A stretch of 14,053 nt of DNA from IMG/VR virus record IMGVR_UViG_2617270944_000005; one strand, 5' to 3'. The notes beneath the pieces were generated by a model. The model saw only the letters and a list, made by a program, of their open reading frames with translations, made no database searches and was not told the DNA's origin. The DNA is from a virus. Its lineage: Duplodnaviria > Heunggongvirae > Uroviricota > Caudoviricetes. The translations under genes and the position numbers were made by a program. How positions within the stretch are numbered: the stretch's first letter is position 1; each line of letters begins with the position of its first letter. Of the stretch, positions 1 through 14,053 are shown in pieces.

Positions 1-1236
1 CTACGATAACCGCGCATTCAACATGGCTATCTGTTCGTCGTTCATGTCATCAATCCACATACCGTAAATTTCATACACCATCTGCGCAGTTTCATGCCCC
101 ATTTGGCTGGCTATAAATGCCGGGTTCGCTCCTGCCGTCAACAGCCAGCAGGCAAAAGTATGCCGCGTATGGTACGGATTACGGCGGCGAATACCAGCAC
201 GTTTTACTGCTGCATTCCACCTTGCCCCCAAACTGCTTACCGAGTAATAAGGTTTTTGTTTTCCGTTACACACCCTGGGCATGAAAACAAAATGCAGTTT
301 TTGCTTTTCGGTTCTGCCGTACTCCCGATGATAAAAGGTGATTTCGCTTTTGCGATGATGCCCGGTCAGTTTGTATTGCTCCTTCAGTGCTTCAAGAGCA
401 GGCTGCAGTAGTGTTACTGTTCGGATCCCGGCATTTGTTTTTGGGGGACCGAACATATCAAGTATCGTCAGGTTTCTTCTGACATTCACTATTCCCTTTT
501 CGAGATCCACATCCTCCCACGCCAGAGCTGCCAGTTCCCCGTGACGAAGTCCTGAGTAAACGGCAAATTTCCACAAGTTCTGGCTCTGTCCTTTTTCACT
601 TTCCATTAATGCATTGAATTCTGTTTTAGATAACGGATCAGGCTTTATTCTGTTTCGCTGTAATTTTTTTACTCCTTCAAATGGTTTGGTTGATATAAAT
701 CCCGACTGATACGCAAAACGCAACAGCGAACAGAGCAGGGCGATATAGTTATCAACTGTGCGCACGGTTCTTCCTTTTTTGTTGGATCTTGGATTATCCA
801 GGTAAAGCGTTTCTCCATGCAGCAGTTCATTCCGGTAGTTTAAGATATCGCTATAACGAATATGTGATATCGGGGTACTTTCACAAATTATTATTCTGAG
901 TGTTTTTAATTGTGATTTCGTTTTCTTCATTGTGTTTGTTGTTAACTCTGTCTCTTTAATTTTTGTCCAGATATCACAAAGCTCTCCGAACGTTTTTATG
1001 ACTCTCGTTGTCACCATTTTTGCCCCAGTGCTGGACTGGGGAAAACGTCTTAAATACTCAAATTCACCGGAGTTTATTTCATGAACTATCAGCGCTCTTA
1101 AATTTCCGGCCTTTTTAATATTACTGTTTGTAATCTCCCAGCCTTTTAATGTTTCCCGACATCGTTTTCCTCGAAACATGAACCAGATGCGAATGTATCT
1201 ACCTCTAATCTCGACACCTGTTGGTAATTTAGACAT
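1..1236 (-). CDS. intR: Tyrosine recombinase / prophage integrase (Rac IntR-like), 411 aa
   Basis: Complete 411-aa ORF; N-terminus MSKLPTGVEIRGRYIRIWFMFRGKRCRETLKGW matches my recollection of Rac IntR; C-terminal region has the tyrosine recombinase catalytic residue pattern (HxxRHT...Y); stop codon is the first 3 nt of the window. Confidence 0.93.
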   Translation of the reverse strand: MSKLPTGVEIRGRYIRIWFMFRGKRCRETLKGWEITNSNIKKAGNLRALIVHEINSGEFEYLRRFPQSSTGAKMVTTRVIKTFGELCDIWTKIKETELTTNTMKKTKSQLKTLRIIICESTPISHIRYSDILNYRNELLHGETLYLDNPRSNKKGRTVRTVDNYIALLCSLLRFAYQSGFISTKPFEGVKKLQRNRIKPDPLSKTEFNALMESEKGQSQNLWKFAVYSGLRHGELAALAWEDVDLEKGIVNVRRNLTILDMFGPPKTNAGIRTVTLLQPALEALKEQYKLTGHHRKSEITFYHREYGRTEKQKLHFVFMPRVCNGKQKPYYSVSSLGARWNAAVKRAGIRRRNPYHTRHTFACWLLTAGANPAFIASQMGHETAQMVYEIYGMWIDDMNDEQIAMLNARLS

Positions 1237-1237
1237 A

Positions 1238-1453
1238 TCATGAGTCTTTGATAAACTGATTTATCTTTGGATAGTTGTACCAGATAATCCCTCGTTTGCT
1301 GTCTGGCTTACCTAAAGGAGATACTCGTTTGAAGTGGAAGCCCTCCACCCAACAGTTCTGGCGGTATGCTTCAATTTGTCTGGCCCCCAGACCAGTGCGA
1401 AGCATCAGGCCGTATTCAACCATCCACTCTTCATTAAAGATTACTTGTGCCAT
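1238..1453 (-). CDS. xisR: Excisionase-like protein (Rac YdaQ/XisR-like), 71 aa
   Basis: Immediately upstream of int on the same strand; start chosen at [10 protein letters not shown], which has a GAGGTG Shine-Dalgarno 6 nt upstream; the longer 79-aa ORF from 1477 lacks an RBS. Stop is 1 nt from the int start codon. Confidence 0.8.
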
Positions 1454-1531
1454 CGCATCACCTCTGGCAGGCGCCAATGTTAGACTGAAATTGACGCCCG
1501 ATGTTGATTATTAATAATCAGCTATGAAGTT

Positions 1532-1741
1532 TTAATTTGAATACAATGCAATTCTCGAGGACTGAAGTTTCTCGCAATTAAAATTTATCAGTTTTACTTT
1601 CTGCTCTCTGGAAACGCCTGCTTCTTTTTTACCTGAGAGCATTTTTTCGCATTCTGATTTCGTTAGTTTAGATTTTGAATATCTTGTCCAGTTAGTAGGA
1701 GTGCCACCTTCCTTTTCAATAGTGGCGGTAATTTTATACAT
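1532..1741 (-). CDS. ydaC: Small prophage protein YdaC-like (DUF1187-type), 69 aa
   Basis: Start chosen at MYKITATIEKEGG, preceded by a GGAGGTG Shine-Dalgarno; ORF track shows a longer 93-aa version from 1813. Start overlaps the ralR stop by 8 nt. Confidence 0.75.
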   Translation of the reverse strand: MYKITATIEKEGGTPTNWTRYSKSKLTKSECEKMLSGKKEAGVSREQKVKLINFNCEKLQSSRIALYSN

Positions 1742-1928
1742 GAACACCTCCATTATTATTTCCAGTGGTTCGTTTATTCCATCTTTCGAGTGCTTCTTTT
1801 TCACTTCCACCATAACCGGTTCGGGATTCGCATCCGTTACACTTCGCTCGGTAATATCCTGAAATGGCTTTCACCGTTACTGATGGACAACCACAAAATG
1901 GACATGGTTTAACATTGTCATATCTCAT
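1734..1928 (-). CDS. ralR: Restriction alleviation protein Lar / RalR (reported DNase toxin of a type I TA pair), 64 aa
   Basis: Sequence MRYDNVKPCPFCGCPSVTVKAISGYYRAKCNGCESRTGYGG with a CxxC...CxxC pattern matches the Lar/RalR family as I recall it; start taken at MRYDN (no strong SD, so the start is uncertain; in-frame alternatives at 1940 and 1967). Confidence 0.8.
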   Translation of the reverse strand: MRYDNVKPCPFCGCPSVTVKAISGYYRAKCNGCESRTGYGGSEKEALERWNKRTTGNNNGGVHV

Positions 1929-1984
1929 AATTTTTCTCATAAAAAATATTTCAAGTTGGCGGTGCATTACCCCGCCAGGCTGAA

Positions 1985-2794
1985 TTATTCCTCTGAATTA
2001 TCGATTACACTGTATTCCCCGGTTAATACAGAGGAATCTGCAGGATCGATTGTCAGTGGTTCCTTTTCATCCATTGATACTGCACGCTGGATCTCAATTG
2101 ATACGGGCAGATATTTGAACAGGCGACGAATAGCCGTTTTCTTTGCCATTTCTTCCCAGTGAGTTACCCACGGCCCGTTATTACCAGCTTTACTCAGGCT
2201 GCGCACCAGCTCAATCTGTTTGCGCGTCATAACTTCAAACTGAGTACCTCCGTCTTTCAGTCTTGCGACAGCATAGACGTGGGTAACCGGGGCATCTTCG
2301 TTTTCTCCCGGGCGGTGTATTAACTTTTCATCAAGGCCAAATTCGAAGCTAAACTCGTCACCTTCACGGACAACACGGGCTGACAGGCTGGCGATTTGAC
2401 CAGAACGGCGAGCCAGATCAATCATGCCGCGATAGCCAATGATTAGCTGAACGTTCTTTTTACCGCTCTTTTCGTTTTTATTACCAAAAGGCAGTAAATA
2501 TGCATGACCGAGGGCGCTACCTGGCTCAAGTCCGAGCTGTGAACACTGTACGATCGCACTGACAAAACTCATAGTGTCACAGTTTCCTAACGCCGGAACT
2601 TTACGAATTTCTGTGGTGGCGATACGGATCATACGTTCAGCCGTCATATGGCGTGGAAGAGCTGCTGCCAGTTGCTCTTTCATTGATGGCTGGTTAATAA
2701 AACTAATCACGTCGCTATTTTTAACTGCTGCTGGTGCACGGTTTCCCTGAGTTTTTTGCAGATCGGCTTTTGCGATTGGTGGTTGCTTAGTCAT
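1985..2794 (-). CDS. recT: Recombination protein RecT (single-strand annealing protein), 269 aa
   Basis: Starts [24 protein letters not shown], matching RecT; start is the third in-frame ATG of the 288-aa ORF; overlaps the recE stop by 8 nt. Confidence 0.95.
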
Positions 2795-5387
2795 TTGCAT
2801 ATTCCTTAGCCCAGCGGGGCAGTGATAATGTCTTAATAGCTGGCCATTCATCGGTATTCAGGCAGTCAGACAGGGTTCGCAGATTGCGGTGATATTCCTG
2901 TTGACCTGCCAGTTTTGCTTCTTCGCCCATCATGAAAATTTCAACCGGATAACGTCCGCATTCAATAGTTGTGCTGGCAACCAGAAAAACGAAAGTTGGC
3001 TGCACTCCAAACTGTGCTTCATAACCGTCACTGTAGAACGCATCCTGAACGTGATAGCGGTAGTCGTAATAAGCGGTTTTGAATCGTTGAATATCCGCCG
3101 TAGTTTTCACGTCCATGATCCAGTGAAATTCAGGGATAATTTTGTCCGGACGGCACCGACACAAAATTCCTGTTTCAGGATCTTCCCAGTAAATTGATGA
3201 TTCAGCGTGTCCGGCGCTTTCAACAAGCCATTGCCCCAGCGGCAAAGCCATAACGCTTTGATACATGAGTTCAATTTTCCGGCCTTCTTCCGCAGTGATA
3301 ACCGTTTTTCCTGTGCTTGCGCATTCCATCAGAAACGCTTTCTCTTCTTCTTTTCCGGCGTTTGTACGGCGGTTAAATTCAGGTGCTACGATAAAGCGGT
3401 TACTGAATTCTTCCGGTTCAAGTACCCGGCAGTGGAAAGCAGTTCCTAAATCGAGCGTTTTTGTCTTTGTGGTGTCCACGGGGGCATTTTTACGCCACAA
3501 ATATAGTGCCGGAGTATCAGCAATGTCATCGAGCTGAGACTTACTGATACCGGGACCCGCGTGGTAATTCTCATTCGAAATTCCGTAATAAATACCTGGC
3601 TCTATGTCTTCTACGATTACGGGATCTGCGACTTCGCCAGTTTCATCACTGCAATCGCGATGCGGATCGCTGCCAGCATTCTCATTGTGCGGATGTTCAG
3701 CGCCTTCCATTTCCTCCGGATCATTTTCCTTAGCTTCAACCTGACTCTCTTCATCGAATGTTTCCTGGTATGTTGCGTCGCCCATCACCGCACCACAGTC
3801 AGGGCAGTTATCCCCGCCAGTCTGGCCGCAGGCATTGCAGGCTATTTCCGGTTCCTGTTGCACTACTGGCTCAGGTTGATTCATATCTGGGCTGGTTTTT
3901 TCCGTTTCTGGCTGGTTCTGGTACACACAATCGCGAGTCTGGATCCCCTTTACCCATTTCGGATCGTTCGGGTCGCTAATTCCGTCAACAAATTCACCAC
4001 GTGATGCAGCAAGCAATTTATCGGCATCGACAGGATTTTTTGATGGAATGTTTTTCCGGGCTTCATGGAGTTCTGCCCGCAGTTCCTGATATTTCGCATC
4101 AACAGAATTTACCTGTGACTGAGCATCCAGCGGCTGCGTGTCCTGATGATGTTCAGTTGCGTCCGGTTCCATTGTTTCAGCCTCTCCCTGTTCAACTGCC
4201 GTTGTTCCAGATGGTTGCGGTTTTTCTTCATCATCCTGTTTTCCTTCTTCTGTTACTCGCTGCGGCATCGGGGCAGAGGAGCGACCGCAGGCAATATCCA
4301 CGATTTCCGGATCAGGGTTGGCATGATCGGTTTCAGTCAGTACTTTGTTCAGATATTCAGTGACGTGCGCGGGGATGACCTCGATCCCAATTGGTGCTTC
4401 TTTTACGGACGCAACCACGATGGCGCGGGAATAATCCAGCCCGCCAGGCATGGTGATGAATTTGTCGCGGAAAACAGAAAAGGGCGGTTTATTTTCAGCG
4501 ATAATTTCCTCAATGCGTTTAGCGTGTGCCGGATGAAGGTTATAGATGTCCAGATCCATTGAACGGGCCAGTACGCCAGTGGCTACGTCGCGCGCCAGTG
4601 ACGTCAGATCGTGTACGAAACCTTCGCCGCGATCGGTGAGGTTTCCGCCGCCAGCATTAGCACCGGAAGCCGTGCAAGTGATGTGTGAAACACGATTACC
4701 CTTCATCCACTCTTTTGTCAGCAGTCCTCGATCGGTGTAGTCAGCGTTCAGGTATGCTTCGAAAAAAGCAGTTATCAGTCCCAGGTTTGAATTACCAGGA
4801 TTAGGGAAAACTTTGTCAGTGTCACGAACCAGTTTGTGGAGTTCGCGAATTTCCAGCGGGTCGAGCAGGCTGGTTTTGTGGGAAACAGCCAGGGCAGTAA
4901 CAGCCGGTAGTTCTTCAGCCCGAGCAATGTGTAATGCCTGGAGTCCGTCGCGTGAAACGTGCGTTACCGGTTTTTCGCTGCCGTGTTGAGCAAGCCAACG
5001 AATGGGCAGTTCCTGGCCAGAAATTGGGAGTAGCATATTCTCCTCAATCTCAGTCATGTCTTCGCCGTTGACGTTGGTATTGCCTTGATAGTGAGCGTTG
5101 TCTGGTGCTGCTCCCGGTTTTAGTTCCCATGTCATGGAGTCTTTGCTGAGTTGATAGCGTTCACTCCAGGTAAAATCGATCTCACCTTCAGCGGGCAGGT
5201 CATTAACGACAGGAAAATTCGTGGCAACAGCTTTAAAATAGCTGCTCAGTTTTTTACCTGACTTAACGATCAGGTAGTCCAGAGTGGCACAGGTCGATTC
5301 AAAATCGTTGCTTGCCCACAGGACGACGTCAGGTTCACCGGATGATTTTTTCGCTTTCCGTAACAGGAAGAGTGGTTTTGTGCTCAT
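2787..5387 (-). CDS. recE: Exodeoxyribonuclease VIII (RecE), 866 aa
   Basis: 866-aa ORF starting [24 protein letters not shown]; acidic low-complexity central region and a conserved C-terminal nuclease part; directly upstream of recT as in the Rac recET operon. Confidence 0.95.
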
Positions 5388-5458
5388 TGTTTTTTAACCT
5401 CAACTCAGATTAAAATTCGTTTTGTTCAGTGAATGATCTTGCCGGATACACACTGTTC

Positions 5459-5483
5459 ATAGCCTGCGCCATACGCAGGCTAT
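5459..5483 (-). terminator. Perfect 10-bp stem / 5-nt loop hairpin at the racC-recE junction (possible terminator or RNA structure)
   Basis: ATAGCCTGCG-ccata-CGCAGGCTAT read directly from the sequence; lies 6 nt downstream of the racC stop on the minus strand. The T-rich run (TTCTTTCAGATTT) follows it on the plus strand, not the minus strand, so canonical intrinsic termination of the racC transcript is not supported. Confidence 0.35.
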
Positions 5484-5488
5484 TTCTT

Positions 5489-5764
5489 TCAGATTTCACC
5501 TTTTAATTTCATTGCAATTAGAGTTGCCAGAAATTCGGCTTTTTTTTCTGCGGGCAGATTCTTTCCGATATGCACCAGGCACATTTTTTTGACACCTTCA
5601 TCAAGTGTTTTTACGTTGCCTGATGGACCATCGATATCAACCACAGTGAATGGGGTTTCTTTATTTTCTGTTTTAATTACGTAGCCAATGCGCTTTCCTT
5701 CCAGATTCACCTCGTGAACAATGTCATCGGTAGTTACAACAGTGGCTTCATAATTGGTAATCAT
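5489..5764 (-). CDS. racC: Rac prophage protein RacC-like, 91 aa
   Basis: Start at MITNYEATVVTTDDIV with an AAGGAG Shine-Dalgarno upstream; located immediately upstream of recE as in Rac. Confidence 0.8.
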   Translation of the reverse strand: MITNYEATVVTTDDIVHEVNLEGKRIGYVIKTENKETPFTVVDIDGPSGNVKTLDEGVKKMCLVHIGKNLPAEKKAEFLATLIAMKLKGEI

Positions 5765-5838
5765 GTTTTTCTCCTTAATTAAGGTTGAGCGAATACCTGC
5801 CATTTCTGGCATAAATTCAGTTTCGAATAGTCAATTAA

Positions 5839-6009
5839 TTAAAGTTCATGTGCCATCTGGTCTTTTTCGGCACAAGCTTCACTGCAATATTTTCTCGGTT
5901 CGTCTTTTGATAAAATCCCGTGCATGAAGTGAAGCATTCTTTCAATAGCTTTGCTTTCTTCAACGTCTTTTTTGCAAAGGTGGTAAGCACATTTTATTTT
6001 CTTAGTCAT
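5839..6009 (-). CDS. ydaE: Small zinc-ribbon-like protein YdaE-like, 56 aa (absent from the ORF track because under 60 aa)
   Basis: Translated by hand from the minus strand: [56 protein letters not shown]; four Cys as CxxxxC...CxxxC; start ATG overlaps the kilR stop (TGATG). An in-frame ATG two codons upstream (6015) has GGAG 5 nt upstream and is an alternative start. Confidence 0.7.
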   Translation of the reverse strand: MTKKIKCAYHLCKKDVEESKAIERMLHFMHGILSKDEPRKYCSEACAEKDQMAHEL

Positions 6010-6230
6010 CACCATGACTCCGCCTTTACAGGTAAACCATCACGACCGAGGAAGACTTTAATCATGCGGTCAGTAATGAATGTTTTTGTGGTCAGGTTAC
6101 GAATATATAGTTTTCGCTTTTTAATATTGTTTGCCGAGGCAATATATGTCCGGCCTTCATGAAGAACATAATCGCCAGGAGTCACACACTGACGTGGTAT
6201 TTCATCAGTTCCGAAGTGATGTGCAATCAT
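6009..6230 (-). CDS. kilR: Killing protein KilR (cell-division inhibitor), 73 aa
   Basis: [35 protein letters not shown] matches KilR as I recall it; GGAG 8 nt upstream of the chosen ATG; ORF track shows a 77-aa version starting 4 codons earlier. Confidence 0.85.
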
Positions 6231-6671
6231 AATTATCTCCATTTTTACAAATGAACTTTGTTGATGCGGTGTCTGGTGCCTCCAGGTGACTGCAACCAGT
6301 TAACAATTACAGTCGGCTTTCCCACCCAAACCAATAAGGACTAACATGACTTTTAACTGTGCCACGTGCGCTTAGCCGCATTCACCGCATCACAAAATTC
6401 ACTTTAAAAAGGGCGGACATCAGCCGAACTTCAAGAAAAAAACTGATGCCGCCAGGACTACACACAGCAATGTCGTTATTTACAACCGGAGGCGCACTCC
6501 CTCCATTTAAATTTAACAGACAAGACCGACTCTTTATGGATATCGGAAATGCGCCTTCGTGTTGTGCCCGGTTTTATTTCACCACCTCCGGGCTTCGGTG
6601 GTCTCGGCTATACCCCTACAGCGAGAGCTTGTGTTAACATTTCAATACCCTTACAGTTGAGAGTTATTGAT

Positions 6672-7160
6672 ATGTTGGATGTATTTACTCCATTGTTGAA
6701 ACTTTTTGCTAACGAGCCACTCGAAAGACTTATGTATACGATTATCATTTTTGGTCTCACTCTCTGGCTGATACCGAAAGAGTTTACTGTCGCATTCAAT
6801 GCTTATACTGAAATACCTTGGCTCTTTCAGATTATCGTTTTTGCCTTTTCTTTCGTGGTCGCCATTTCCTTCTCAAGATTGCGAGCACATATTCAAAAGC
6901 ATTATTCATTACTACCAGAGCAACGAGTATTGCTTCGTTTATCTGAGAAAGAAATCGCTGTATTTAAAGATTTCCTTAAAACAGGAAATCTTATTATCAC
7001 TTCTCCTTGCCGTAACCCGGTTATGAAAAAATTAGAACGGAAGGGCATCATTCAACATCAGAGTGATAGCGCAAACTGTTCTTATTATCTCGTCACCGAA
7101 AAATACTCCCATTTTATGAAGTTATTCTGGAACAGCAGGAGTAGACGTTTTAATCGTTAG
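6672..7160 (+). CDS. sieB: Superinfection exclusion protein B (SieB), 162 aa, membrane protein
   Basis: MLDVFTPLLKLFANEPLERLMYTIIIFGLTLWLIPKEF with hydrophobic segments; the 203-aa ORF in the track starts upstream, but the start is placed at MLDVF to match the 162-aa SieB length I recall. Confidence 0.88.
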   Translation: MLDVFTPLLKLFANEPLERLMYTIIIFGLTLWLIPKEFTVAFNAYTEIPWLFQIIVFAFSFVVAISFSRLRAHIQKHYSLLPEQRVLLRLSEKEIAVFKDFLKTGNLIITSPCRNPVMKKLERKGIIQHQSDSANCSYYLVTEKYSHFMKLFWNSRSRRFNR

Positions 7161-7312
7161 CTTACTGTGTGCTTCTCCAACCATCGGCGCGCACCAGTTT
7201 CGGTTTTAAATGTTTTGCTTTTGGTATACGTCATGGCAGTGAACGTTCCATCCTGGTTGGGGAACACGCCGCACACCAGGGATTCGTTGTTGCCGAGGTC
7301 GATTTTTTGCAT
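7157..7312 (-). CDS. ydaF: Small prophage protein YdaF-like, 51 aa
   Basis: Hand translation of the minus strand: MQKIDLGNNESLVCGVFPNQDGTFTAMTYTKSKTFKTETGARRWLEKHTVS; 3' end overlaps the sieB 3' end convergently by 4 nt; position matches Rac ydaF between sieB and racR. Not in the ORF track (under 60 aa). Confidence 0.6.
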   Translation of the reverse strand: MQKIDLGNNESLVCGVFPNQDGTFTAMTYTKSKTFKTETGARRWLEKHTVS

Positions 7313-7322
7313 TTTGCGAATC

Positions 7323-7457
7323 TCACATCTTGTTGCTACGTATAGCGACTTCTGCCTGCCAGAGATCCCAGTCGTTGCTGCGTAAAGCCTGCACAGCCTG
7401 GTTGTAAGTGATACCGCAACAATCCATCAAATACTGAACTACTTCGTAATGCACCAT
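7323..7457 (-). CDS. ydaG: Small prophage protein YdaG-like, 44 aa
   Basis: Hand translation: MVHYEVVQYLMDCCGITYNQAVQALRSNDWDLWQAEVAIRSNKM; GGGGAGAG Shine-Dalgarno-like sequence 6-8 nt upstream; size and position match Rac ydaG. Confidence 0.55.
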   Translation of the reverse strand: MVHYEVVQYLMDCCGITYNQAVQALRSNDWDLWQAEVAIRSNKM

Positions 7458-7623
7458 CTTATCTCTCCCCTTAACGCCGGGTGGCGGAACTAACTGCTGC
7501 ACTGCAAAATTTGAATCCCGCCGTCATGTTCTTACGCCTCGGGCTGGCTACTTAACCCCTGACCACTGCCTGGTAACTCGAAGTATTGCCCTGCATTCTG
7601 TGGGGCGGGGTGGGTGGCAGGCA

Positions 7624-7671
7624 TATAATGTACTTTGTGTTCATTGTTGTAAAGTACATTTAGTACATTTT
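7624..7671. promoter_or_regulatory. Candidate leftward operator/promoter (OL-like): 10-bp inverted repeat AATGTACTTT / AAAGTACATT plus a third AGTACATTT copy
   Basis: Read directly: AATGTACTTT at 7627-7636 and its exact reverse complement at 7651-7660, 14 bp apart, with another AGTACATTT at 7662-7670; plus-strand TATAAT at 7624-7629; possible minus-strand -35 TTTACA (7648-7653) and -10 CATTAT (7625-7630) for leftward transcription toward ydaG. Confidence 0.4.
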
Positions 7672-7743
7672 ATGTGTAAAAAAATGAGATGGGATAAAGT
7701 GAAGCACAAACCCGGAGGAAGGCGCTACCGGATTTATGCTGGT

Positions 7744-8163
7744 TTAAGAGGCTTTTTGTTTTTTCTTTCGTGCTAACTCTTCGTAAATTGCATTGTACTT
7801 CTGTTTTTTCTCTTCAAGAGTTTTTAAAAGTTCATCTGTCTCACTGTCAGGGAGCTCGTCCAGAAGGTCAATGATGATTTTTTGTCTTGGATTTAACTCC
7901 TGATAGAAACGTACCTGTCCACTTTCTTCTGTATCCTCTCCCAAAAGATAGGTTGGTGTTGTTCCTATTAGTGTTGCTAATTCCCTTAATTTCTCCCGGC
8001 GAGGAATTGTTTCGCCATTAAACCATTTGCTAACCGCTTTTGGTGTTAATTTCATTCGACGGGCAATTTCTGCCTGCCTTCCATGTTGTTCATAACCAGC
8101 GTTTTCACAGGCTAGCGCAAGCCTACTGGCGAACTCTTTACGCGCTTTATCTTCATGAACCAT
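7744..8163 (-). CDS. racR: Prophage repressor, XRE-family HTH (RacR-like, cI analogue), 139 aa
   Basis: HTH region QAEIARRMKLTPKAVSKWFNGETIPRREKLRELATLIG; divergent from the cro-like ydaS; no alternative standard start upstream in frame before a stop. Confidence 0.85.
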   Translation of the reverse strand: MVHEDKARKEFASRLALACENAGYEQHGRQAEIARRMKLTPKAVSKWFNGETIPRREKLRELATLIGTTPTYLLGEDTEESGQVRFYQELNPRQKIIIDLLDELPDSETDELLKTLEEKKQKYNAIYEELARKKKQKAS

Positions 8164-8183
8164 AAGTTCAATGATATTCGCTC

Positions 8184-8218
8184 TTGAATGTACTGTCAGT
8201 TCTGTTATAGCATGTACT
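8184..8218. promoter_or_regulatory. Candidate rightward operator/promoter (OR-like) in the racR-ydaS divergent intergenic region
   Basis: Two copies of the same AATGTACT / ATGTACT motif seen at the OL-like site (8187-8194 and 8212-8218, 24-25 bp apart), overlapping a plausible -35 TTGAAT (8184-8189) and -10 TATAGC (8207-8212) for ydaS. Confidence 0.45.
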
Positions 8219-8242
8219 CAAAGTTCACATTGTGAGGGTGAT

Positions 8243-8497
8243 ATGAACCAGAAAACACTTGAAGATGTAATCAAAACTGTTCGCGTTGCTGTTGTGGCCG
8301 ACGTTTGTGGTGTCAGCCAAAGAGCAATCTATAAATGGATGGATAACGGAAAATTGCCTCGCACAGAATATACCGGCGAAACAAATTACGCTGAAAAAAT
8401 CGCTCTTGCATCAAACGGATTATTTTCTGCCGATGCAATTTTAACTATTGGCAGGAATAAAACTACTACGAAAAAGCTGATGGGAGTTGATTCATGA
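8243..8497 (+). CDS. ydaS: Cro-like HTH protein YdaS, 84 aa
   Basis: MNQKTLEDVIKTVRVAVVADVCGVSQRAIYKWM (HTH); start chosen at the ATG preceded by GAGGGTG; the ORF track's 108-aa version starts at 8171 inside the operator region. Stop overlaps the ydaT start (ATGA). Confidence 0.8.
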   Translation: MNQKTLEDVIKTVRVAVVADVCGVSQRAIYKWMDNGKLPRTEYTGETNYAEKIALASNGLFSADAILTIGRNKTTTKKLMGVDS

Positions 8498-8919
8498 AAA
8501 TCAAGCATGAACACATCCGCATGGCGATGAATGCCTGGGCGCATCCGGACGGCGAAAAAGTACCGGCTGCGAAAATTACCAAAGCGTATTTCGAGCTGGG
8601 AATGACGTTCCCGGAACTGTATGACGACAGCCATCCGGAAGCCCTGGCTCGCAATACTCAGAAAATTTTCCGCTGGGTGGAGAAAGACACCCCTGATGCG
8701 GTTAAAAAAATTCAGGCGTTGTTACCAGCTATCGAAAAAGCAATGCCACCTCTGCTGGTGGCCCGAATGCGCAGTCATAGCTCAGCCTATTTTCGGGAAC
8801 TAGTGGAGACGCGGGAACGACTGGTGAGAGACGCTGATGATTTTGTCGCAGTGGCGATCGCTGGTTTCAACCAGATGAATCGTGGTGGCCCTGCAGGAAA
8901 TATTGTGGCTGTGCATTGA
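8494..8919 (+). CDS. ydaT: YdaT (CII-like regulator, also reported as toxic on overexpression), 141 aa
   Basis: MKIKHEHIRMAMNAWAHPDGEKVPAAKITKAYFELGMTF matches Rac YdaT as I recall it; GGAG 8 nt upstream; translationally coupled to ydaS. Confidence 0.9.
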   Translation: MKIKHEHIRMAMNAWAHPDGEKVPAAKITKAYFELGMTFPELYDDSHPEALARNTQKIFRWVEKDTPDAVKKIQALLPAIEKAMPPLLVARMRSHSSAYFRELVETRERLVRDADDFVAVAIAGFNQMNRGGPAGNIVAVH

Positions 8920-8990
8920 CTCGCAATATTCATACCGGATCGCTTCCGGCAATTTGTGAGTAAAAAGATTCGGTATCAAAAGAGGTGAGT

Positions 8991-10061
8991 ATGGCTAACG
9001 CCTGGCTCAGATTATGGCATGACATGCCAAATGACCCTAAGTGGCGAACAATTGCCAGGGTGTCAGGGCAGCCAATTGCAACAGTGATGGCAGTGTATAT
9101 CCACCTCCTGGTGAGCGCGTCACGAAATGTCACGCGAGGTCACATTGAGGTCACGACAGAAGATTTGGCAAGTGCGCTCGACGTGACAGAAGAGGTAATT
9201 GATTCAATTTTGCAGACGATGCAGGGGCGGGTACTTGATGGTGATTTAATCACTGGATGGGAAAAACGCCAGGTGCTTAAAGAGGACAACGGCAATATTT
9301 CGCAAACCGCAAAATCTCCTGCAGAGCGCAAGAGGGCGCAGCGAGAGAGGGAAAGAAAGCGGGAACAAAATGGCGATTGTCACGGCGCGTCACGAAATGT
9401 CACGCATATGTCACGACGAGTCACGACAGATAAAGATACAGATAAAGATACAGATCAAGAAGATCAAAACACTATGGTCCATGGCGTAAAAAACGCCACG
9501 AACCAGGCAGGGGATGTTCAGACCGTCAATCTTGGTCAGCCAGCAGGCACGACACCGGAAGCCGATTCAGCGTATGCGCTGAAAGCCGATTCGGGCGCTG
9601 TGCAGCAGGTGATGACCGCAAGGCCGGAGCAATCACACCAACTGCAGCAGCCCGAAGCCGATTCCGCCATTCAGCGGGAAGCCGATCGGGTAGTCCCGGA
9701 AAACACCGGGCAGTCTGTGGGACGAGTGGATTATCCGGATGTGTTCGAACAGGTCTGGCGGGAGTACCCGTTGCGTGCTGGGGCAAACCCGAAGAAATCC
9801 GCTTTCAGTGCCTGGAAGGCCAGATTACGCGAGGGGGTGCCACCAGAGGCCATGCTGGATGGCGTGAGGCGTTACGCAAGATACTTGGCGGCTACCGGGA
9901 AAACGGGAACGGAATTTGTTCAGCGAGCGACGACGTTTTTTGGACCGGACCGGAATTTTGAGAACCCCTGGTTGCTCCCGGTAAGCGGCACGAACAACCA
10001 GCGTTGTGTGAATCATATTTCTGAACCGGATAACGAAATTCCGCCGGGCTTCAGGGGGTAA
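8991..10061 (+). CDS. Phage replication initiator-like protein (O-like / replisome-organiser-like), 357 aa, with intragenic iterons
   Basis: Position immediately after the cro/cII analogues; AAGAGG Shine-Dalgarno before the ATG at 8991 (the track's start at 8985 is a GTG two codons upstream); the gene contains two phased direct-repeat clusters, as lambda O contains ori-lambda; basic/acidic low-complexity linker; conserved-looking C-terminal domain (YPDVFEQVWREYPLRAGANPKKSAFSAWKARL). Family assignment is inferred, not searched. Confidence 0.7.
   Translation: MANAWLRLWHDMPNDPKWRTIARVSGQPIATVMAVYIHLLVSASRNVTRGHIEVTTEDLASALDVTEEVIDSILQTMQGRVLDGDLITGWEKRQVLKEDNGNISQTAKSPAERKRAQRERERKREQNGDCHGASRNVTHMSRRVTTDKDTDKDTDQEDQNTMVHGVKNATNQAGDVQTVNLGQPAGTTPEADSAYALKADSGAVQQVMTARPEQSHQLQQPEADSAIQREADRVVPENTGQSVGRVDYPDVFEQVWREYPLRAGANPKKSAFSAWKARLREGVPPEAMLDGVRRYARYLAATGKTGTEFVQRATTFFGPDRNFENPWLLPVSGTNNQRCVNHISEPDNEIPPGFRG
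9114..9154. repeat. Iteron-like cluster 1: four GTCAC(G/A) repeats at 10-11 bp spacing
   Basis: GTCACG at 9118, 9128, 9149 and GTCACA at 9138; includes the 21-bp unit GCGCGTCACGAAATGTCACGC (9114-9134), which recurs exactly at 9385-9405. Confidence 0.6.
9379..9452. repeat. Iteron-like cluster 2: five GTCACG repeats at 10-11 bp spacing, followed by a tandem 12-bp GATAAAGATACA x2
   Basis: GTCACG at 9379, 9389, 9399, 9410, 9420; tandem GATAAAGATACA at 9429-9440 and 9441-9452 (encodes DKDTDKDTD); together with cluster 1 a candidate replication origin. Confidence 0.6.
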
Positions 10062-10101
10062 GTGTTAATTTCTGGTCATGAGGTAATTTTCAGGAGGGCT
10101 T

Positions 10102-10524
10102 GTGGCAAAAGTTTTTACACAAGAAGAGCGGGAAAAAATTAAAGGGCAGGTTCTTGAACTCGTACGCCAGAGTGGGCGCGAGACGTTACGACAACTGGAA
10201 GCTAAAACTGGGGCAACAAGATATCTGATGAGCGTTCTGGCCAGAGAGCTGGTTGCCAGTGGCGATGTATACAATTCTGGCTACGGGTTATTCCCGTCTG
10301 AACAGGCTCGTAAAGACTGGCAAAATGCCCGCAAAAAATTATCGAGGGCAAAGCTGAAGAAACCGGTTGTGGTTGATCCGGACCTTATCTGGTCATTACC
10401 TGACGGAGAAATACGTCGCTACGACAGTCGCCTAAACATAATCTGTCGCGAGTGCCGGAAGAGCGAAGTTATGCAGCGCATATTGTCGTTTTATCAGGGG
10501 GATGTTCGGTATTTATTGAAGTGA
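10102..10524 (+). CDS. Hypothetical protein, 140 aa, in the position of a phage helicase-loader (lambda P analogue) but with no recognisable ATPase motif
   Basis: GTG start with a strong AGGAGG Shine-Dalgarno 4 nt upstream; no Walker A motif; lysine/arginine-rich segment (ARKKLSRAKLKK); one CxxC (CRECRK). Function not recognised. Confidence 0.65.
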   Translation: MAKVFTQEEREKIKGQVLELVRQSGRETLRQLEAKTGATRYLMSVLARELVASGDVYNSGYGLFPSEQARKDWQNARKKLSRAKLKKPVVVDPDLIWSLPDGEIRRYDSRLNIICRECRKSEVMQRILSFYQGDVRYLLK

Positions 10525-10858
10525 CGAGATTAAAGTGCATTAGTTCAGATGCAAATTGACATTTTGTGGCACAGGGTAGAGCTAGCGTGGTTGTCCGCTT
10601 TGTGCCAAGAGCAGACGCTGGTAATTCGTGCCTAATATACTTCACTTAACTTATATCCCAGCTTTGATACAGATCATACAAATTAAATGCCCCAGTAATT
10701 GGCAGGCTGAGTAACTTAAAACTCCTTAGAATATAGGATGATTTGTATCGGCACTCATTCCACCATGCATTCCGATTAACCCCGCATAGCCAGTTGAACT
10801 TTGCTACTCTGTGAGAGGTAGTACCTTCTATCCAGTGCGGATTTAATTAATGGAATAA

Positions 10859-13033
10859 ATGATTATGAGTGAAAATGATACAACCCCAAAGAAGTCTACA
10901 AGCCAGATTAACAAAGCGGTATTCTTTACATCTGCTTTGCTAATTTTCCTTCTTGTCGCCTTTGCCGCCGTATTCCCGGATGTCGCCGACAAAAATTTTA
11001 AACTACTTCAGCAACAAATCTTCACGAATGCCAGCTGGTTCTACATACTTGCTGTGGCCCTGATTTTACTGAGCGTCACGTTCCTTGGACTCTCACGTTA
11101 CGGTGATATAAAGCTGGGCCCAGACCATGCGCAGCCTGATTTCAGCTACCACTCCTGGTTCGCGATGCTTTTTTCGGCAGGGATGGGGATCGGCCTGATG
11201 TTCTTTGGCGTTGCCGAACCTGTGATGCATTATCTTTCGCCACCTGTCGGCACTCCAGAGACCGTTGCGGCAGCGAAGGAAGCCATGCGCCTGACGTTCT
11301 TCCACTGGGGTCTGCACGCATGGGCAATTTATGCCATCGTGGCGCTGATTCTGGCCTTTTTCAGTTACCGTCACGGTCTGCCTTTAACGCTGCGTTCTGC
11401 GCTCTATCCCATTATCGGCGATCGCATTTACGGGCCTATAGGCCACGCGGTTGATATCTTCGCCGTGATAGGCACTGTCTTTGGCGTTGCAACATCGCTG
11501 GGTTACGGTGTATTGCAGGTGAATGCCGGTTTGAACCATCTTTTCGGCGTGCCCATCAATGAAACGGTACAGGTCATTTTGATCGTGGTCATCACGGGGT
11601 TAGCGACGATTTCGGTGGTGTCCGGCCTGGACAAGGGAATACGCATCCTGTCTGAGCTTAATCTGGGCCTGGCGGTGTTGCTCCTGGCGCTGGTCTTGTG
11701 CCTGGGTCCCACTGTGCTTCTGCTGAAGTCATTTGTGGAAAATACGGGTGGTTATCTGTCGGAACTGGTGAGTAAAACGTTCAACCTTTACGCGTATGAA
11801 CCCAAGTCGAGCAACTGGCTGGGGGGCTGGACATTATTATACTGGGGATGGTGGCTTTCATGGTCGCCGTTTGTAGGTATGTTCATTGCACGCGTTTCCC
11901 GCGGCAGGACAATTCGTGAGTTCGTGACTGGCGTGTTGTTTGTTCCCGCCGGCTTTACGCTCATGTGGATGACGGTGTTTGGAAACAGCGCCATCTATCT
12001 CATCATGAACCAGGGCGCCACTGACCTCGCCAATACCGTTCAGCAGGATGTTGCGCTTGCCCTGTTTAATTTCCTGGAGCATTTCCCGTTCTCTTCCGTG
12101 CTGTCATTCATTGCAATGGCGATGGTCATCGTCTTCTTTGTAACGTCTGCTGATTCGGGGGCAATGGTTGTGGATACTCTGGCATCAGGTGGGGTGGCAA
12201 ACACGCCCGTCTGGCAGCGAATTTTCTGGGCATCGCTCATGGGCGTTGTTGCTATTGCCCTGCTGATCGCAGGGGGGCTGAGTGCGTTGCAAACCGTAAC
12301 GATAGCGAGTGCATTGCCCTTCTCAGTTATCTTATTAATATCCATATACGGACTGTTAAAAGCCCTGCGTCGGGATTTGACCAAGCGTGAAAGCCTTAGC
12401 ATGGCGACTATTGCTCCTACGGCTGCACGTAACCCAATTCCCTGGCAGAGAAGGTTACGCAATATCGCGTATTTGCCGAAGCGCTCTCTTGTGAAACGTT
12501 TTATGGACGACATTATCCAACCCGCCATGACGCTGGTTCAGGAGGAACTTAACAAGCAGGGAACGATAAGCCACATCAGTGACGCCGCCGAGGATCGTAT
12601 TCGCCTTGAAGTCGATTTGGGCAACGAGCTGAATTATATATATGAAGTGAGGCTTCGCGGGTATAACTCACCGACCTTCGCGCTCGCTGCGCTGGATAAT
12701 GATGAGCAGCAGAGTGAACAACATCGATATTATCGCGCTGAAGTCTATCTCAAAGAGGGCGGCCAAAATTATGATGTAATGGGCTGGAATCAGGAACTGA
12801 ACCGCCCCGGGTTTCCTGGAGAGTGTTTTATCTGTGAACTCAGGCTGCCAGATCATCGTTTCCGATGGAAGCATAATAAGCTTTTTCTGCTTCTGCCGGA
12901 GGAGTATGGCCCAGCCTTCCCAGCAATCGTCGATTGTTATACCAGTCCACCCACGTTAGTGTGGCCAGTTCCACTTCTGCACGGTTTTTCCAGCTCTTAC
13001 GGTGTATTACCTCCGCTTTGTAAAGACCATTGA
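10859..13033 (+). CDS. BCCT-family transporter, BetT-like (choline/osmoprotectant), 3' end interrupted by IS insertion; about 646 native residues followed by an IS-derived out-of-context tail
   Basis: BCCT signature GWTLLYWGWWLSWSPFVGMFIARVSRGRTIREF; collinear similarity to E. coli BetT along its length, including the cytoplasmic C-terminal domain, up to ...YDVMGWNQEL, where the IS terminal repeat begins (12798); roughly 30 residues of the expected C-terminus are missing. An alternative start is the ATG at 10865. Confidence 0.8.
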   Translation: MIMSENDTTPKKSTSQINKAVFFTSALLIFLLVAFAAVFPDVADKNFKLLQQQIFTNASWFYILAVALILLSVTFLGLSRYGDIKLGPDHAQPDFSYHSWFAMLFSAGMGIGLMFFGVAEPVMHYLSPPVGTPETVAAAKEAMRLTFFHWGLHAWAIYAIVALILAFFSYRHGLPLTLRSALYPIIGDRIYGPIGHAVDIFAVIGTVFGVATSLGYGVLQVNAGLNHLFGVPINETVQVILIVVITGLATISVVSGLDKGIRILSELNLGLAVLLLALVLCLGPTVLLLKSFVENTGGYLSELVSKTFNLYAYEPKSSNWLGGWTLLYWGWWLSWSPFVGMFIARVSRGRTIREFVTGVLFVPAGFTLMWMTVFGNSAIYLIMNQGATDLANTVQQDVALALFNFLEHFPFSSVLSFIAMAMVIVFFVTSADSGAMVVDTLASGGVANTPVWQRIFWASLMGVVAIALLIAGGLSALQTVTIASALPFSVILLISIYGLLKALRRDLTKRESLSMATIAPTAARNPIPWQRRLRNIAYLPKRSLVKRFMDDIIQPAMTLVQEELNKQGTISHISDAAEDRIRLEVDLGNELNYIYEVRLRGYNSPTFALAALDNDEQQSEQHRYYRAEVYLKEGGQNYDVMGWNQELNRPGFPGECFICELRLPDHRFRWKHNKLFLLLPEEYGPAFPAIVDCYTSPPTLVWPVPLLHGFSSSYGVLPPLCKDH

Positions 13034-13730
13034 TGCTCTCAGCCATCGCGTTGTCATACGAGTCGCCTGTACTCCCTGTTGATGCCAGTAATCCGGCTTC
13101 TTTTAGTCGCTCCGTATAGGCCAGTGACACATACTGAGAGCCTTTATCGCTGTGATGGATGGTGCCAGACGGACGACGGGCCCACAACGCCTGCTCCAGC
13201 GCATCCAGCACGAATGTCGTTTCCATAGACGATGAGACCCGCCACCCCACGATGTATCCGGCAAACACATCAATGATAAACGCCACATAGACGAAGCCCT
13301 GCCATGTGCTGACGTAAGTAAAATCAGCCACCCACAGCTGGTCAGGTCGTTCTGCCACGAACTGACGGTTTACGCGGTCGCCTGCGGCAACGGCTTTCCG
13401 GCTGATGGTCGTACGGACCTTTTTACCCCGGAGAACACCGGCAAGTCCCATAACCGCCATGAGACGTGCCACTGTACATCTGGCCACCCTGATTCCTTCC
13501 CGTAACAACTGACGCCAGACTTTACGCACACCGTACACCTGATGATTTTCATCGTATACGCGCTGTATCTCTCTCTTCAGCCAGTCGTCGTGCTGCGCAC
13601 GGGCACTGCGTTTATCCGGATGATGTCGCTGTTGCTGACAATGGTAATACGTTGACGGGGCAATATGCAGTTCGCTGCATACCGGTCCGACCCCGTACTG
13701 CTCACGCAGCTTATCCAGCAGTGGCATCAT
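12840..13730 (-). CDS. IS3-family transposase OrfB (DDE integrase-like catalytic domain), 296 aa
   Basis: DDE transposase hallmarks (WVADFTYV ... HSDKGSQY ... [15 protein letters not shown]); in the -1 frame relative to orfA, overlapping it by 4 nt. Confidence 0.9.
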
Positions 13731-14053
13731 TTTTTCCAGAGGCGGTCGAACTCCGCCTTCGCAAAATAAGCGGAAGCCTGGCGAAGGATATCGTTACTGC
13801 GGCGCAGTTCACGATTTTCACGTTCCAGCTCTTTCAGACGCTGACGTTCCGCGCTGGTGAGCCCACCATCACCGCCCCCGGTATCCCGCTCATGCTGGCG
13901 AACCCAGACACGCAGAGTCTCCGGCGTACAGCCAATCTTTGGGGCAATGGAACAAATTGCCGCCCACTGTGAGTCATATTCATCCTGACTTTCCAGAACC
14001 ATACGAATCGCCCGCTGACGGACTTCGGGGGAAAAACGAGTATTTTTAGTCAT
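13727..14053 (-). CDS. IS3-family transposase OrfA (HTH plus leucine-zipper region), 108 aa
   Basis: [30 protein letters not shown]... with a heptad-like [20 protein letters not shown] segment; ends in an A6 run directly before its stop, at the orfB overlap. Confidence 0.9.

Follow-up and report, generated by a model that had tools for sequence, protein, structure and literature searches.

The window analyzed here, a viral DNA stretch of 14,053 nt, carries at positions 7744-8919 an intact immunity region in which a repressor gene faces a divergent cro-like gene and a cII-like gene, ydaT, and the evidence laid out below supports this assignment. The element is very likely a Rac-type prophage at ttcA, in which a K-12-like left arm (int to ydaG) is joined from position 7618 to an immunity and replication module as in phage Tritos, and in which this module would work as a functional lambdoid switch unlike that of K-12. 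The immunity module is already known from Tritos and is an ordinary lambda-style on/off switch.

All three genes are uninterrupted and have the lengths of their closest relatives, bearing out the claim of the initial annotation that they are full length (Table 1). The annotation was also right that the stop codon of the gene in the ydaS position overlaps the ydaT start. At 8494-8497 the sequence reads ATGA (...gattcATGAaaatc...), with the ydaT ATG at 8494-8496 lying over the cro-like TGA at 8495-8497. As the 1.5-kb block is present at a coverage of at least 80% in 410 of 5426 complete E. coli genomes, the trio is not a chance arrangement. By sequence it has the organization of a lambdoid immunity region: the repressor gene is divergent from a cro-cII operon, predicted operators overlap promoters at both ends of the repressor gene, and the early-left kil/sieB genes lie on one side of the whole and the replication genes on the other. 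Iteron-like GTCACG repeats accompany the replication initiator gene at 9117-9156 and 9378-9426. The stretch 7503-7743 is non-coding, and no paaA2-parE2 toxin-antitoxin pair follows the repressor gene.

Table 1. Genes and predicted regulatory sites of the immunity region and its downstream partners (positions in the window).
Feature	Position	Strand	Details
O_L / P_L region	7618-7674	-	Starts directly to the right of the end of K-12 Rac identity (7617)
P_L (predicted, leftward)	-35, 7653-7648; -10, 7630-7625	-	-35 TTTACA; -10 CATTAT
O_L candidate operators (two, 17 bp)	7628-7644; 7652-7668		ATGTACTTTGTGTTCAT; AAGTACATTTAGTACAT
Repressor gene (CI analogue)	7744-8163	-	139 aa
O_R with divergent promoters	8155-8228		Three 17-bp candidate operators
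OR3 (candidate)	8155-8171		ATGAACC-ATA-AGTTCAA; spans repressor start codon 8163-8161
P_RM (predicted)	-35, 8199-8194; -10, 8176-8171		-35 CTGACA; -10 TATCAT, ending 7 nt from ATG
P_R (predicted)	-35, 8184-8189; -10, 8208-8213		-35 TTGAAT; -10 TAGCAT
OR2 (candidate)	8188-8204		
OR1 (candidate)	8212-8228		
cro-like gene	8243-8497 (ORF list, 8171-8497)	+	84 aa from the probable real start, ATG 8243
YdaT-box (putative)	8487-8504		TTGATT-CATGAA-AATCAA; exact match to CP-933P YdaT operator OM
ydaT (CII analogue)	8494-8919	+	141 aa
Replication initiator gene	within 8991-10524	+	356 aa; downstream partner, travels with the switch in Tritos; PHROG 3729
DUF977/Ren-like protein gene	10102-10524	+	Downstream partner, travels with the switch in Tritos; PHROG 142

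The element is a mosaic. Positions 1-7617 are 99.87% identical to K-12 Rac by blastn, with int, xis, recET and kil all being K-12 Rac sequence at this level, and no similarity to K-12 Rac was found to the right of 7617. Positions 7466-10624 are 96.8% identical to Tritos, the predicted Rac-like prophage 666R9 matches positions 2600-8517 at 99.1% identity, and the repressor and cro-like genes show no nucleotide differences from those of Tritos and of E. coli 13C1079T. Records of the vB_EcoS-666R9 type were dropped as proof of virions from this immunity type, being PHASTER-predicted prophages according to their source preprint. Tritos is prophage 3 of the AIEC strain LF82; it makes siphovirus particles and expresses CI 24-fold over background in the lysogen. 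Identical repressor sequence is in itself no proof of expression in the present host.

The Tritos module (OV696610, TRITO_33-37) has the identical repressor and cro genes, followed by ydaT, the replication initiator and the DUF977 gene in the same order as in the window. The surroundings differ. In Tritos, a complete siphovirus that forms plaques, the integrase and exonuclease are the phage's own and the left arm is of the dicB type; in the window, Rac genes (intR, recET, kilR, sieB) form the backbone, and metabolic cargo and an IS element come after the module. Sharing every base of both its repressor and its cro gene with this plaque-forming phage, the complete switch is almost certainly functional.

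The initial annotation had named the trio RacR / YdaS-YdaT. If the three were orthologous to these proteins of K-12 Rac, the K-12 operators, essentiality and toxicity would apply to them directly, and the two elements do share their chromosomal site, flanking Rac genes, gene order and orientation. Both have a true YdaT family member and a YdaT-box with the ydaT ATG in its spacer, and both have 7-N3-7 operators, one of them on the repressor start codon. The proteins, however, point elsewhere. BLASTP similarity of the repressor to RacR (158 aa) is confined to the helix-turn-helix, with 12 of 33 residues identical (E 1e-4). The cro-like protein matches YdaS (98 aa) with an E-value of 0.075 and scores 12.1 bits (E 0.18) with the Pfam YdaS family PF15943, against a gathering threshold of 30, whereas the score of K-12 YdaS is 107.7 bits and that of the O157 YdaS-like protein 38.8 bits; nothing is shared beyond the generic helix-turn-helix. 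Even YdaT is only 33% identical to its K-12 counterpart, the K-12 ydaS and ydaT genes are separated by a gap of 22 nt instead of overlapping, and the K-12 replication genes are ydaU/ydaV. The half-site of the candidate operators is ATGWACY and not ATTAGGC. Finally, Tritos, which has the module of the window, forms plaques on MG1655 carrying K-12 Rac, meaning that Tritos and K-12 Rac are heteroimmune. Orthology to RacR and YdaS is refuted at the sequence level, and we consider this reading, with the K-12 properties applying directly, extremely improbable. The layout stands, and of the three names YdaT alone is correct as a statement of family membership. Near-identical Rac elements carry at least three unrelated repressor/cro alleles in the slot between ydaG and ydaT, namely those of K-12, of this window and of DXMF6-3R.

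The repressor itself is an evolutionary chimera of two parts, with a helix-turn-helix from one lineage and a helical tail shared with another. Its N-terminus (approximately residues 2-74) is an XRE-type helix-turn-helix, for which HTH_3 is the only Pfam match, and its C-terminus (approximately residues 79-138) is an all-helical domain of the DicA/PaaR2 type in an AF2 model (pLDDT 83.7). An S24 peptidase autocleavage domain was seen neither in Pfam (no PF00717 match) nor in the all-helical model. The DNA-binding domain is ~75% identical to those of S24-type repressors from Raoultella/Klebsiella prophages that use the same operators and are presumably SOS-cleavable. The helical domain (~50 residues) is ~72% identical to that of the heteroimmune Rac-type repressor of DXMF6-3R, which has an unrelated DNA-binding domain. 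As the relatives P0021 and P0034 carry an S24 domain behind the same helix-turn-helix, the C-terminal domain has been swapped.

Of the K-12 proteins, DicA comes closest to the repressor (29% identity over 112 aa by BLASTP, including the C-terminal LPxSE helical region), and it is also the best NCBIfam match. The score with the DicA model NF007257 is 56.8 bits (E 2e-15, residues 29-137 aligned to 20-132 of 135), below the curated cut-off of 101, and we rejected the repressor as a DicA equivalog while noting the like architecture. The dicA-dicC-ydfX region of Qin offers a second resemblance in YdfX, which is similar to the N-terminal part of YdaT, but its DicC is unrelated to the cro-like protein. 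Identity to an O157 PaaR-type repressor is 27%. When the repressor model was compared with the PDB by Foldseek, only the generic XRE helix-turn-helix matched, and no match reached E ≤ 0.001. For the C-terminal domain, which is thus left with no solved relative, we infer a role in oligomerization or signaling.

The longer version of the cro-like ORF (108 aa from 8171) was rejected, as its start would precede the predicted P_R promoter. The most likely start is the ATG at 8243, which is backed by the PGAP annotation, by a GAGGG 4-5 nt upstream, and by a Raoultella homologue that aligns from residue 1. The resulting helix-turn-helix protein is predicted to be the lytic-side regulator of this immunity type, and the cro-position protein of a Raoultella prophage having the same operator motif shares 58% identity with it. 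A sequence search of the PDB with this protein gave no match. A Pseudomonas relative with 61% identity carries PF15943, making a remote relationship to YdaS possible.

The operator and promoter assignments are computational. Every copy of the repeated heptamer ATGTACT in the window (5/5) lies in the non-coding DNA to either side of the repressor gene. The 17-bp pattern ATGWACY-N3-RGTWCAT, which was refined to this final form once the sites had been seen, has matches within the window at O_L and O_R only. It also occurs, with two perfect matches, at the corresponding places in independent prophages from Raoultella and metagenomes whose repressors have the same helix-turn-helix, while four loci with other immunity alleles gave no operator-region matches. 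RacR operators are built on the half-site ATTAGGC (PMC9638921), and as a positive control the same k-mer method recovers this experimentally defined motif in K-12; ATTAGGC and its complement GCCTAAT are absent from O_R and O_L of the window. Short palindromes in O_R (e.g., ACTGTCAGT) were set aside in favor of the 7-N3-7 model, which generalizes to independent loci. The P_R match to consensus is weak (8/12). No Shine-Dalgarno sequence was found for the repressor gene, and the short distance between the predicted P_RM -10 element and the ATG implies that the repressor mRNA is probably leaderless, as has been demonstrated for paaR2 of CP-933P.

YdaT scores 39.1 bits with Pfam PF06254 (cut-off 21) and matches PHROG 163, 'CII-like transcriptional activator', with an E-value of 3.5e-45. 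Over all 141 residues it is ~97% identical to PDB entry 3c4r (E 1e-90), and it is ~85% identical to the crystallized CP-933P protein, 8bt1 (E 2e-80). This near-identity suggests a tetrameric, POU-like helix-turn-helix transcription factor with a long helix. Homologues of YdaT form such POU-like tetramers, bind a defined operator, activate a promoter and cross-activate; their binding site, the YdaT-box (T/A)TGATT-N6-AATCAA at the ydaT start codon, has been footprinted in CP-933P and K-12 (PMC9986795, PMC11879457).

The ATGA overlap sits in the 6-bp spacer of the putative YdaT-box, and ydaT has its own Shine-Dalgarno sequence, GGGAG, 7 nt upstream at 8482-8486. The ydaT ATG and its flanks make up a conserved junction of ~30 bp that serves K-12 and other alleles alike: it is kept in K-12 despite a ydaS that ends 22 nt earlier, and with other cro alleles the overlap with ydaT is 17 nt. 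Since the junction is conserved with a gap or with a longer overlap, the ATGA is not an independent sign of selected coupling. It is probably a by-product of the cro frame running into the YdaT-box/ATG junction, which probably doubles as a crossover point for module exchange.

These observations also bear on whether the cro-like/YdaT pair could be a type II toxin-antitoxin module, with the ATGA as coupling of the toxin-antitoxin style. The 4-nt overlap is typical of such operons, the Pfam names 'YdaS_toxin' and 'YdaT_toxin' suggest it, and growth arrest has been reported upon expression of K-12 ydaS/ydaT (PMC5700377, PMC5700373). Nevertheless, the YdaT homologues are operator-binding promoter activators, the CP-933P YdaT is non-toxic, and the CP-933P pair has been shown not to be a toxin-antitoxin system. 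Furthermore, the surrounding genes are those of a cI/cro/cII/replication region, and the cro allele has been exchanged independently of ydaT, unlike a co-adapted toxin and antitoxin. A toxin-antitoxin function for this pair thus seems to us highly implausible.

With the lambdoid switch as the preferred reading, CP-933P of E. coli O157:H7 provides a demonstrated parallel in logic, as bistability with CI/Cro/CII-like logic has been demonstrated there. The two share the identical TTGATT-N6-AATCAA box, a repressor of a helix-turn-helix plus helical tail, and a leaderless mRNA, which is shown in CP-933P and predicted in the window. They differ in the paaA2-parE2 pair that follows the CP-933P repressor, in the operator repeats, and in the O157 cro-like protein, which passes PF15943.

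We propose that the repressor binds the 17-bp operators, three at O_R and two at O_L, and would thereby shut both P_R (cro-ydaT-replication genes) and P_L (ydaG/ydaF, kilR, recET, xis, int). Occupancy of OR3, on the repressor's own start codon, would limit the leaderless P_RM transcript, and the Cro-like protein would act as the counter-regulator at the same region. YdaT, an activator as shown for its homologues, would then turn on an antisense P_RE-like promoter from its box to yield more repressor. The parallel to lambda cI-cro-cII lies in the gene order and logic, in several operators grouped on either side of the repressor gene, in the predicted leaderless repressor transcript and in an activator of the CII type that would work where cro and cII meet. 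In sequence the two are not homologous, the repressor lacks the RecA-sensitive S24 domain, and YdaT would bind an inverted repeat as a POU-like tetramer, unlike lambda CII, which recognizes a direct repeat. Two weak antisense P_RE candidates lie inside cro (8395-8367 and 8447-8419), the YdaT-dependent promoter itself not being placed; in CP-933P, YdaT-driven P_RE activity was seen with reporter fusions only.

The switch could alternatively be an inert relic, with its reading frames open through recent acquisition but neither expressed nor needed in a defective prophage. The closest complete relatives are indeed defective, the window contains an IS element, and near-identity across hundreds of genomes leaves little time for decay, making intactness alone weak evidence of function. 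Several features nonetheless argue for a working switch. Both the repressor gene and cro match, without a single difference, their counterparts in a phage able to lysogenize and form plaques. The 24 nucleotide differences between the ydaT genes of the window and of Tritos (94% nt identity) amount to 21 synonymous and 2 non-synonymous codon changes, and comparison with an O157 allele gives 19 synonymous and 11 non-synonymous changes. The predicted operators and promoters are intact, the single base by which O_R differs from Tritos lying in an operator spacer. In addition kilR, whose K-12 product is annotated as an FtsZ inhibitor, is intact under the predicted P_L. Together these observations leave the inert relic as a very unlikely explanation.

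The initial annotation further described a K-12-like repressor guarding growth-inhibitory products. The K-12 identity has to be given up, but the guarding role is very probable, given the intact kilR on the P_L side and the finding that silencing the prophage repressors by CRISPRi was detrimental in LF82, a strain whose Tritos prophage has the identical gene. The suggestion that the element is less degenerate than a typical cryptic prophage found no support. Its left arm is that of K-12 Rac, a textbook defective prophage, and an IS1203 is inserted in a cargo (BCCT) transporter within the window. Between ttcA and uspF, the closest complete genomes have no head or tail morphogenesis genes except tail-fibre remnants and tfaR. 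These nearest relatives suggest that the element is itself defective. The BCCT/IS1203 junction was not found as one piece among complete E. coli genomes, the nearest, DXMF6-3R, having a different immunity allele.

How the switch might be flipped is a separate matter. With a helical tail in place of a LexA-like S24 domain, direct flipping of the switch by RecA is not expected, and induction of the prophage by DNA damage seems doubtful. Treatment with ciprofloxacin or trimethoprim induced a set of prophages that did not include Tritos. On both counts mitomycin C would be a weak test and probably the wrong inducer. An ImmA/IrrE-like gene found downstream in Tritos is missing from this element, and the induction behavior of the two may differ. 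As a speculative idea that we think is more likely wrong than right by a good margin, the DicA/PaaR2-type tail might be a common receiver through which an induction signal acts independently of SOS; a small antirepressor of the kind known from SinR/SinI-like systems would be one example. If so, heteroimmune prophages of the Rac, Qin and CP-933P type would be switched together through the shared tail, and an SOS-blind copy of the repressor, such as this one, would confer dominant and non-inducible immunity to those homoimmune phages that are SOS-inducible.

Our additions to the known module are small, consisting of the proposed operator consensus and the two-module make-up of the repressor, and they leave current understanding unchallenged. 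They do show that the label 'Rac prophage' does not imply RacR immunity, and that K-12 data on racR essentiality, RacR operators and YdaS toxicity are not transferable by position. A host with this element should resist Tritos-like phages, and not phages of K-12-Rac immunity.

The window represents a Rac-type prophage inserted beside ttcA, with the gene order intR, xisR, rcbA/ralR, recT, recE, racC, ydaE, kilR, sieB, ydaF, ydaG, switch region, replication gene, DUF977 gene, BCCT transporter and IS3-family element. The immunity switch is real, intact and almost certainly working, and its three genes are all uninterrupted within 7744-8919, as the initial annotation had stated. For the cro-like gene, the start is most likely the ATG at 8243, giving 84 aa, based on the PGAP start, a Raoultella homologue that aligns from residue 1, a GAGGG just upstream, and the position of 8171 upstream of the predicted P_R promoter. 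The RalA antitoxin sRNA was also detected at 1557-1735 (+), opposite ralR/rcbA as in K-12 Rac (Rfam RF02694, 225 bits).

Coordinates of features of the switch and neighboring regions (window positions unless a comparison locus is named)
Feature	Position	Strand	Description
Repressor gene	7744-8163	minus	uninterrupted ORF, 139 aa
cro-like gene	8171/8243-8497	plus	uninterrupted ORF
ydaT	8494-8919	plus	uninterrupted ORF, 141 aa
OL1	7628-7644		predicted operator, 17-bp pattern
OL2	7652-7668		predicted operator, 17-bp pattern
OR3	8155-8171		predicted operator, 17-bp pattern
OR2	8188-8204		predicted operator, 17-bp pattern
OR1	8212-8228		predicted operator, 17-bp pattern
Conserved junction block	8480-8517; comparison loci L002 10655-10715 and L004 5885-5920		approximately 30 bp
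GTCACG repeat clusters	9117-9156 and 9378-9426		inside replication gene
ALIL frameshift pseudoknot	13656-13772		of IS1203-like element

Two of the three genes had, however, been misidentified. The trio was originally named RacR, YdaS and YdaT; protein similarity and Pfam scores uphold only the last of these names. The repressor has 12 of 33 residues in common with RacR, in the helix-turn-helix only, and we rejected this assignment. Among K-12 proteins it is most closely related to DicA of prophage Qin (29% over 112 residues, E 5e-15), although it misses the curated DicA cut-off (56.8 vs 101 bits), and it is 27% identical to a PaaR-type repressor of an O157:H7 prophage. YdaS was likewise rejected for the cro-like protein, which shows no significant similarity to K-12 YdaS (E 0.075) and scores 12.1 bits against Pfam PF15943, compared to 107.7 for K-12 YdaS and a cut-off of 30. 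The YdaT name holds, as the third protein reaches 39.1 bits on the Pfam YdaT model (cut-off 21). This protein is 33% identical to K-12 YdaT, about 97% identical to structural-genomics entry 3c4r, and about 85% identical to the crystal structure of YdaT from the O157:H7 prophage CP-933P (8bt1).

The DNA shows 99.87% identity to K-12 Rac over 1-7617, beyond which the match stops completely; in a separate search, K-12 genomes matched only the first ~115 bases of 7503-8497. Positions 7466-10624 are instead 96.8% identical to the temperate Escherichia phage Tritos, where the same five genes are annotated as CI repressor, Cro, regulator, replication protein and hypothetical protein. Repressor and cro match their Tritos counterparts with 0 nucleotide differences and O_R differs by one base, while ydaT carries 24 nucleotide differences (codon changes: 21 synonymous, 2 non-synonymous). 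Homology stops at 10624, directly past the DUF977/Ren-like gene, and the BCCT transporter cargo starts beyond. Tritos carries other genes past the equivalent position, among them hokD and a gene for an ImmA/IrrE-like metallopeptidase, the latter missing from the window.

The adherent-invasive strain LF82 carries Tritos as its prophage 3. The phage is released spontaneously, forms plaques on MG1655 hsdR- and was observed to be a siphovirus; in the lysogen, transcription of its CI gene lies 24-fold above the prophage background (PMC9928086). In an LF82 CRISPRi screen, prophage repressor silencing was detrimental 'across conditions and phages' (bioRxiv 10.64898/2026.01.05.697630). Since Tritos plates on Rac-carrying K-12, the two immunity types are functionally distinct, in agreement with the sequence prediction. 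Among 5426 complete E. coli genomes, the repressor-cro part is present at ≥80% coverage in 1047 and the whole 1.5-kb block in 410, while window-type ydaT is found in 3024, partnered by several different cro alleles. In E. coli DXMF6-3R, the Rac prophage at ttcA has a third immunity allele in the corresponding slot (14957-16420 of that locus). This allele comprises a repressor of 139 aa whose DNA-binding domain differs, a cro-like gene of 93 aa and YdaT, and repeats its own motif, ATACCCAT, at 24-25-bp spacing in both flanking regions.

Operators were sought as k-mers common to both regions flanking the repressor gene, in several immunity alleles. Applied to K-12 Rac as a positive control, this method recovers ATTAGGC, the RacR half-site known from footprints (PMC9638921). 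Other allele-specific motifs were found in DXMF6-3R and an O157 prophage, each at the same 24-25-bp spacing. In the 14-kb window, ATGTACT occurs five times (7628, 7653, 7662, 8188 and 8212), always within one of the two non-coding segments that border the repressor gene. The extended sites are 17-bp imperfect palindromes, ATGWACY-N3-RGTWCAT, which we predict to be operators; allowing up to two mismatches, this pattern has no match in the window outside the five OR and OL sites. ATGGTTCAT (8155-8163) both encodes the conserved N-terminus of the repressor family, MVH(E), and forms the right half-site of OR3, and two metagenome loci (L011 and L012) show a like arrangement, with TTGAACCTATGGTACAA across the start codon.

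The operator prediction was tested independently on loci of relatives, found using the repressor as query. In a Raoultella locus, ATGTACT occurs three times, each time within the corresponding regulatory regions, and the 17-bp pattern is fitted perfectly at two sites. A second family of relatives has the same pattern, with one site across the repressor start codon, while the operator regions of K-12 Rac, DXMF6-3R, O157 and Qin contain no match. The Raoultella prophage encodes a cro-like homologue with 58% identity, but what it encodes at the cII position is unrelated. This co-occurrence indicates that the DNA-binding domain, Cro and the operators are inherited together, and their joint inheritance is what defines immunity specificity.

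The promoter-like sites are consistent with this operator picture. The predicted P_R (TTGAAT-18-TAGCAT) is overlapped by OR2 and OR1, and the predicted P_L (TTTACA-17-CATTAT), which points into ydaG/ydaF, kilR, recET, xis and int, by OL1 and OL2. The predicted P_RM (CTGACA-17-TATCAT) ends 7 nt from the repressor ATG without a Shine-Dalgarno sequence, implying a leaderless repressor mRNA, as shown by experiment for paaR2 and known for lambda cI (PMC8630535).

The repressor consists of an XRE-type helix-turn-helix (Pfam) and an all-helical tail (AlphaFold model, pLDDT 83.7) and nothing else; a fold search with this model gave matches confined to the helix-turn-helix. Residues 1-76 are ~75% identical to repressors of Raoultella/Klebsiella and metagenome prophages that continue into an S24 autocleavage peptidase. 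Residues 90-139 share ~72% identity with the tail of the Rac repressor from DXMF6-3R, a protein with an unrelated DNA-binding domain, and bear a more distant likeness to DicA and PaaR-type tails. By sequence comparison, the repressor is thus a two-module mosaic, one module common to S24-type and one to DicA-type repressors. Without an autocleavage domain, direct RecA-mediated induction of the switch is unlikely. Consistent with that, induction by ciprofloxacin in LF82 was reported for Gally and Cyrano alone, and trimethoprim slightly lowered Tritos production.

The noted ATGA overlap is present at 8494-8497, where the ydaT ATG starts one base ahead of the cro-like TGA (gattcATGAaaatc). It arises because the cro frame runs 11 codons beyond its conserved domain to a TGA inside ATGA. 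In K-12 the ydaS stop lies 22 nt earlier; two other alleles have a 17-nt overlap between the cro-like frame and ydaT. The ydaT start codon is preceded by a GGGAG of its own, 7 nt upstream. Translational coupling is possible but not needed to account for the sequence. The junction also contains TTGATT-CATGAA-AATCAA (8487-8504), an exact copy of the CP-933P high-affinity YdaT operator (PMC9986795) and one base different from the footprinted 'YdaT-box' of K-12 Rac. Around 30 bases surrounding it (TGATTCATGAAAATCAAGCATGARCACATC) are conserved even between ydaT alleles whose proteins share no more than 33% identity. In the predicted Rac-like prophage 666R9, window-type cro is joined to K-12-type ydaT exactly at the box, which thus doubles as a crossover point, or recombination linker, in module exchange.

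The suggestion that the element is less degenerate than a typical cryptic prophage is unsupported. Its left arm is K-12 Rac sequence, so the intactness of this arm equals that of a classical defective prophage. In the genome that matches bases 1-12797 of the window without a difference, the element goes on to carry metabolic cargo, genes for late regulation and lysis, a tolA-like gene disrupted by an IS, trkG, tail-fibre pseudogenes, tfaR and pinR, and it ends before uspF without terminase, portal, capsid or tail genes. In the window, the BCCT transporter gene is interrupted close to its 3' end by an IS1203-like IS3-family element (~12798-14053), which replaces the transporter's C-terminus (ORF of 724 aa vs 665 aa in the uninterrupted allele); the BCCT/IS1203 junction was found as a single piece in no complete E. 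coli genome of the collection.

The immunity and replication modules look fully functional. The replication-initiator gene holds two GTCAC(G) clusters of four and five copies at 10-11-bp spacing, a perfect 21-nt direct repeat within them (GCGCGTCACGAAATGTCACGC, at 9115 and 9385), and a following A/T-rich tandem repeat (ACAGATAAAGAT x2; second stretch 9378-9449). Together these form a plausible origin, probably the 'candidate origin' of the initial annotation, and their iteron-like arrangement is similar to that of lambda ori, which lies within gene O. As with K-12 Rac, IntR/XisR could plausibly excise the element, but the production of virions is implausible.

All components of the switch are of a known kind, with exact genes from a described phage, solved YdaT structures and a published YdaT operator. 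Our analysis adds to these a map of the mosaic, an operator consensus that is predicted for this type of immunity and backed by independent loci, and the two-module repressor.
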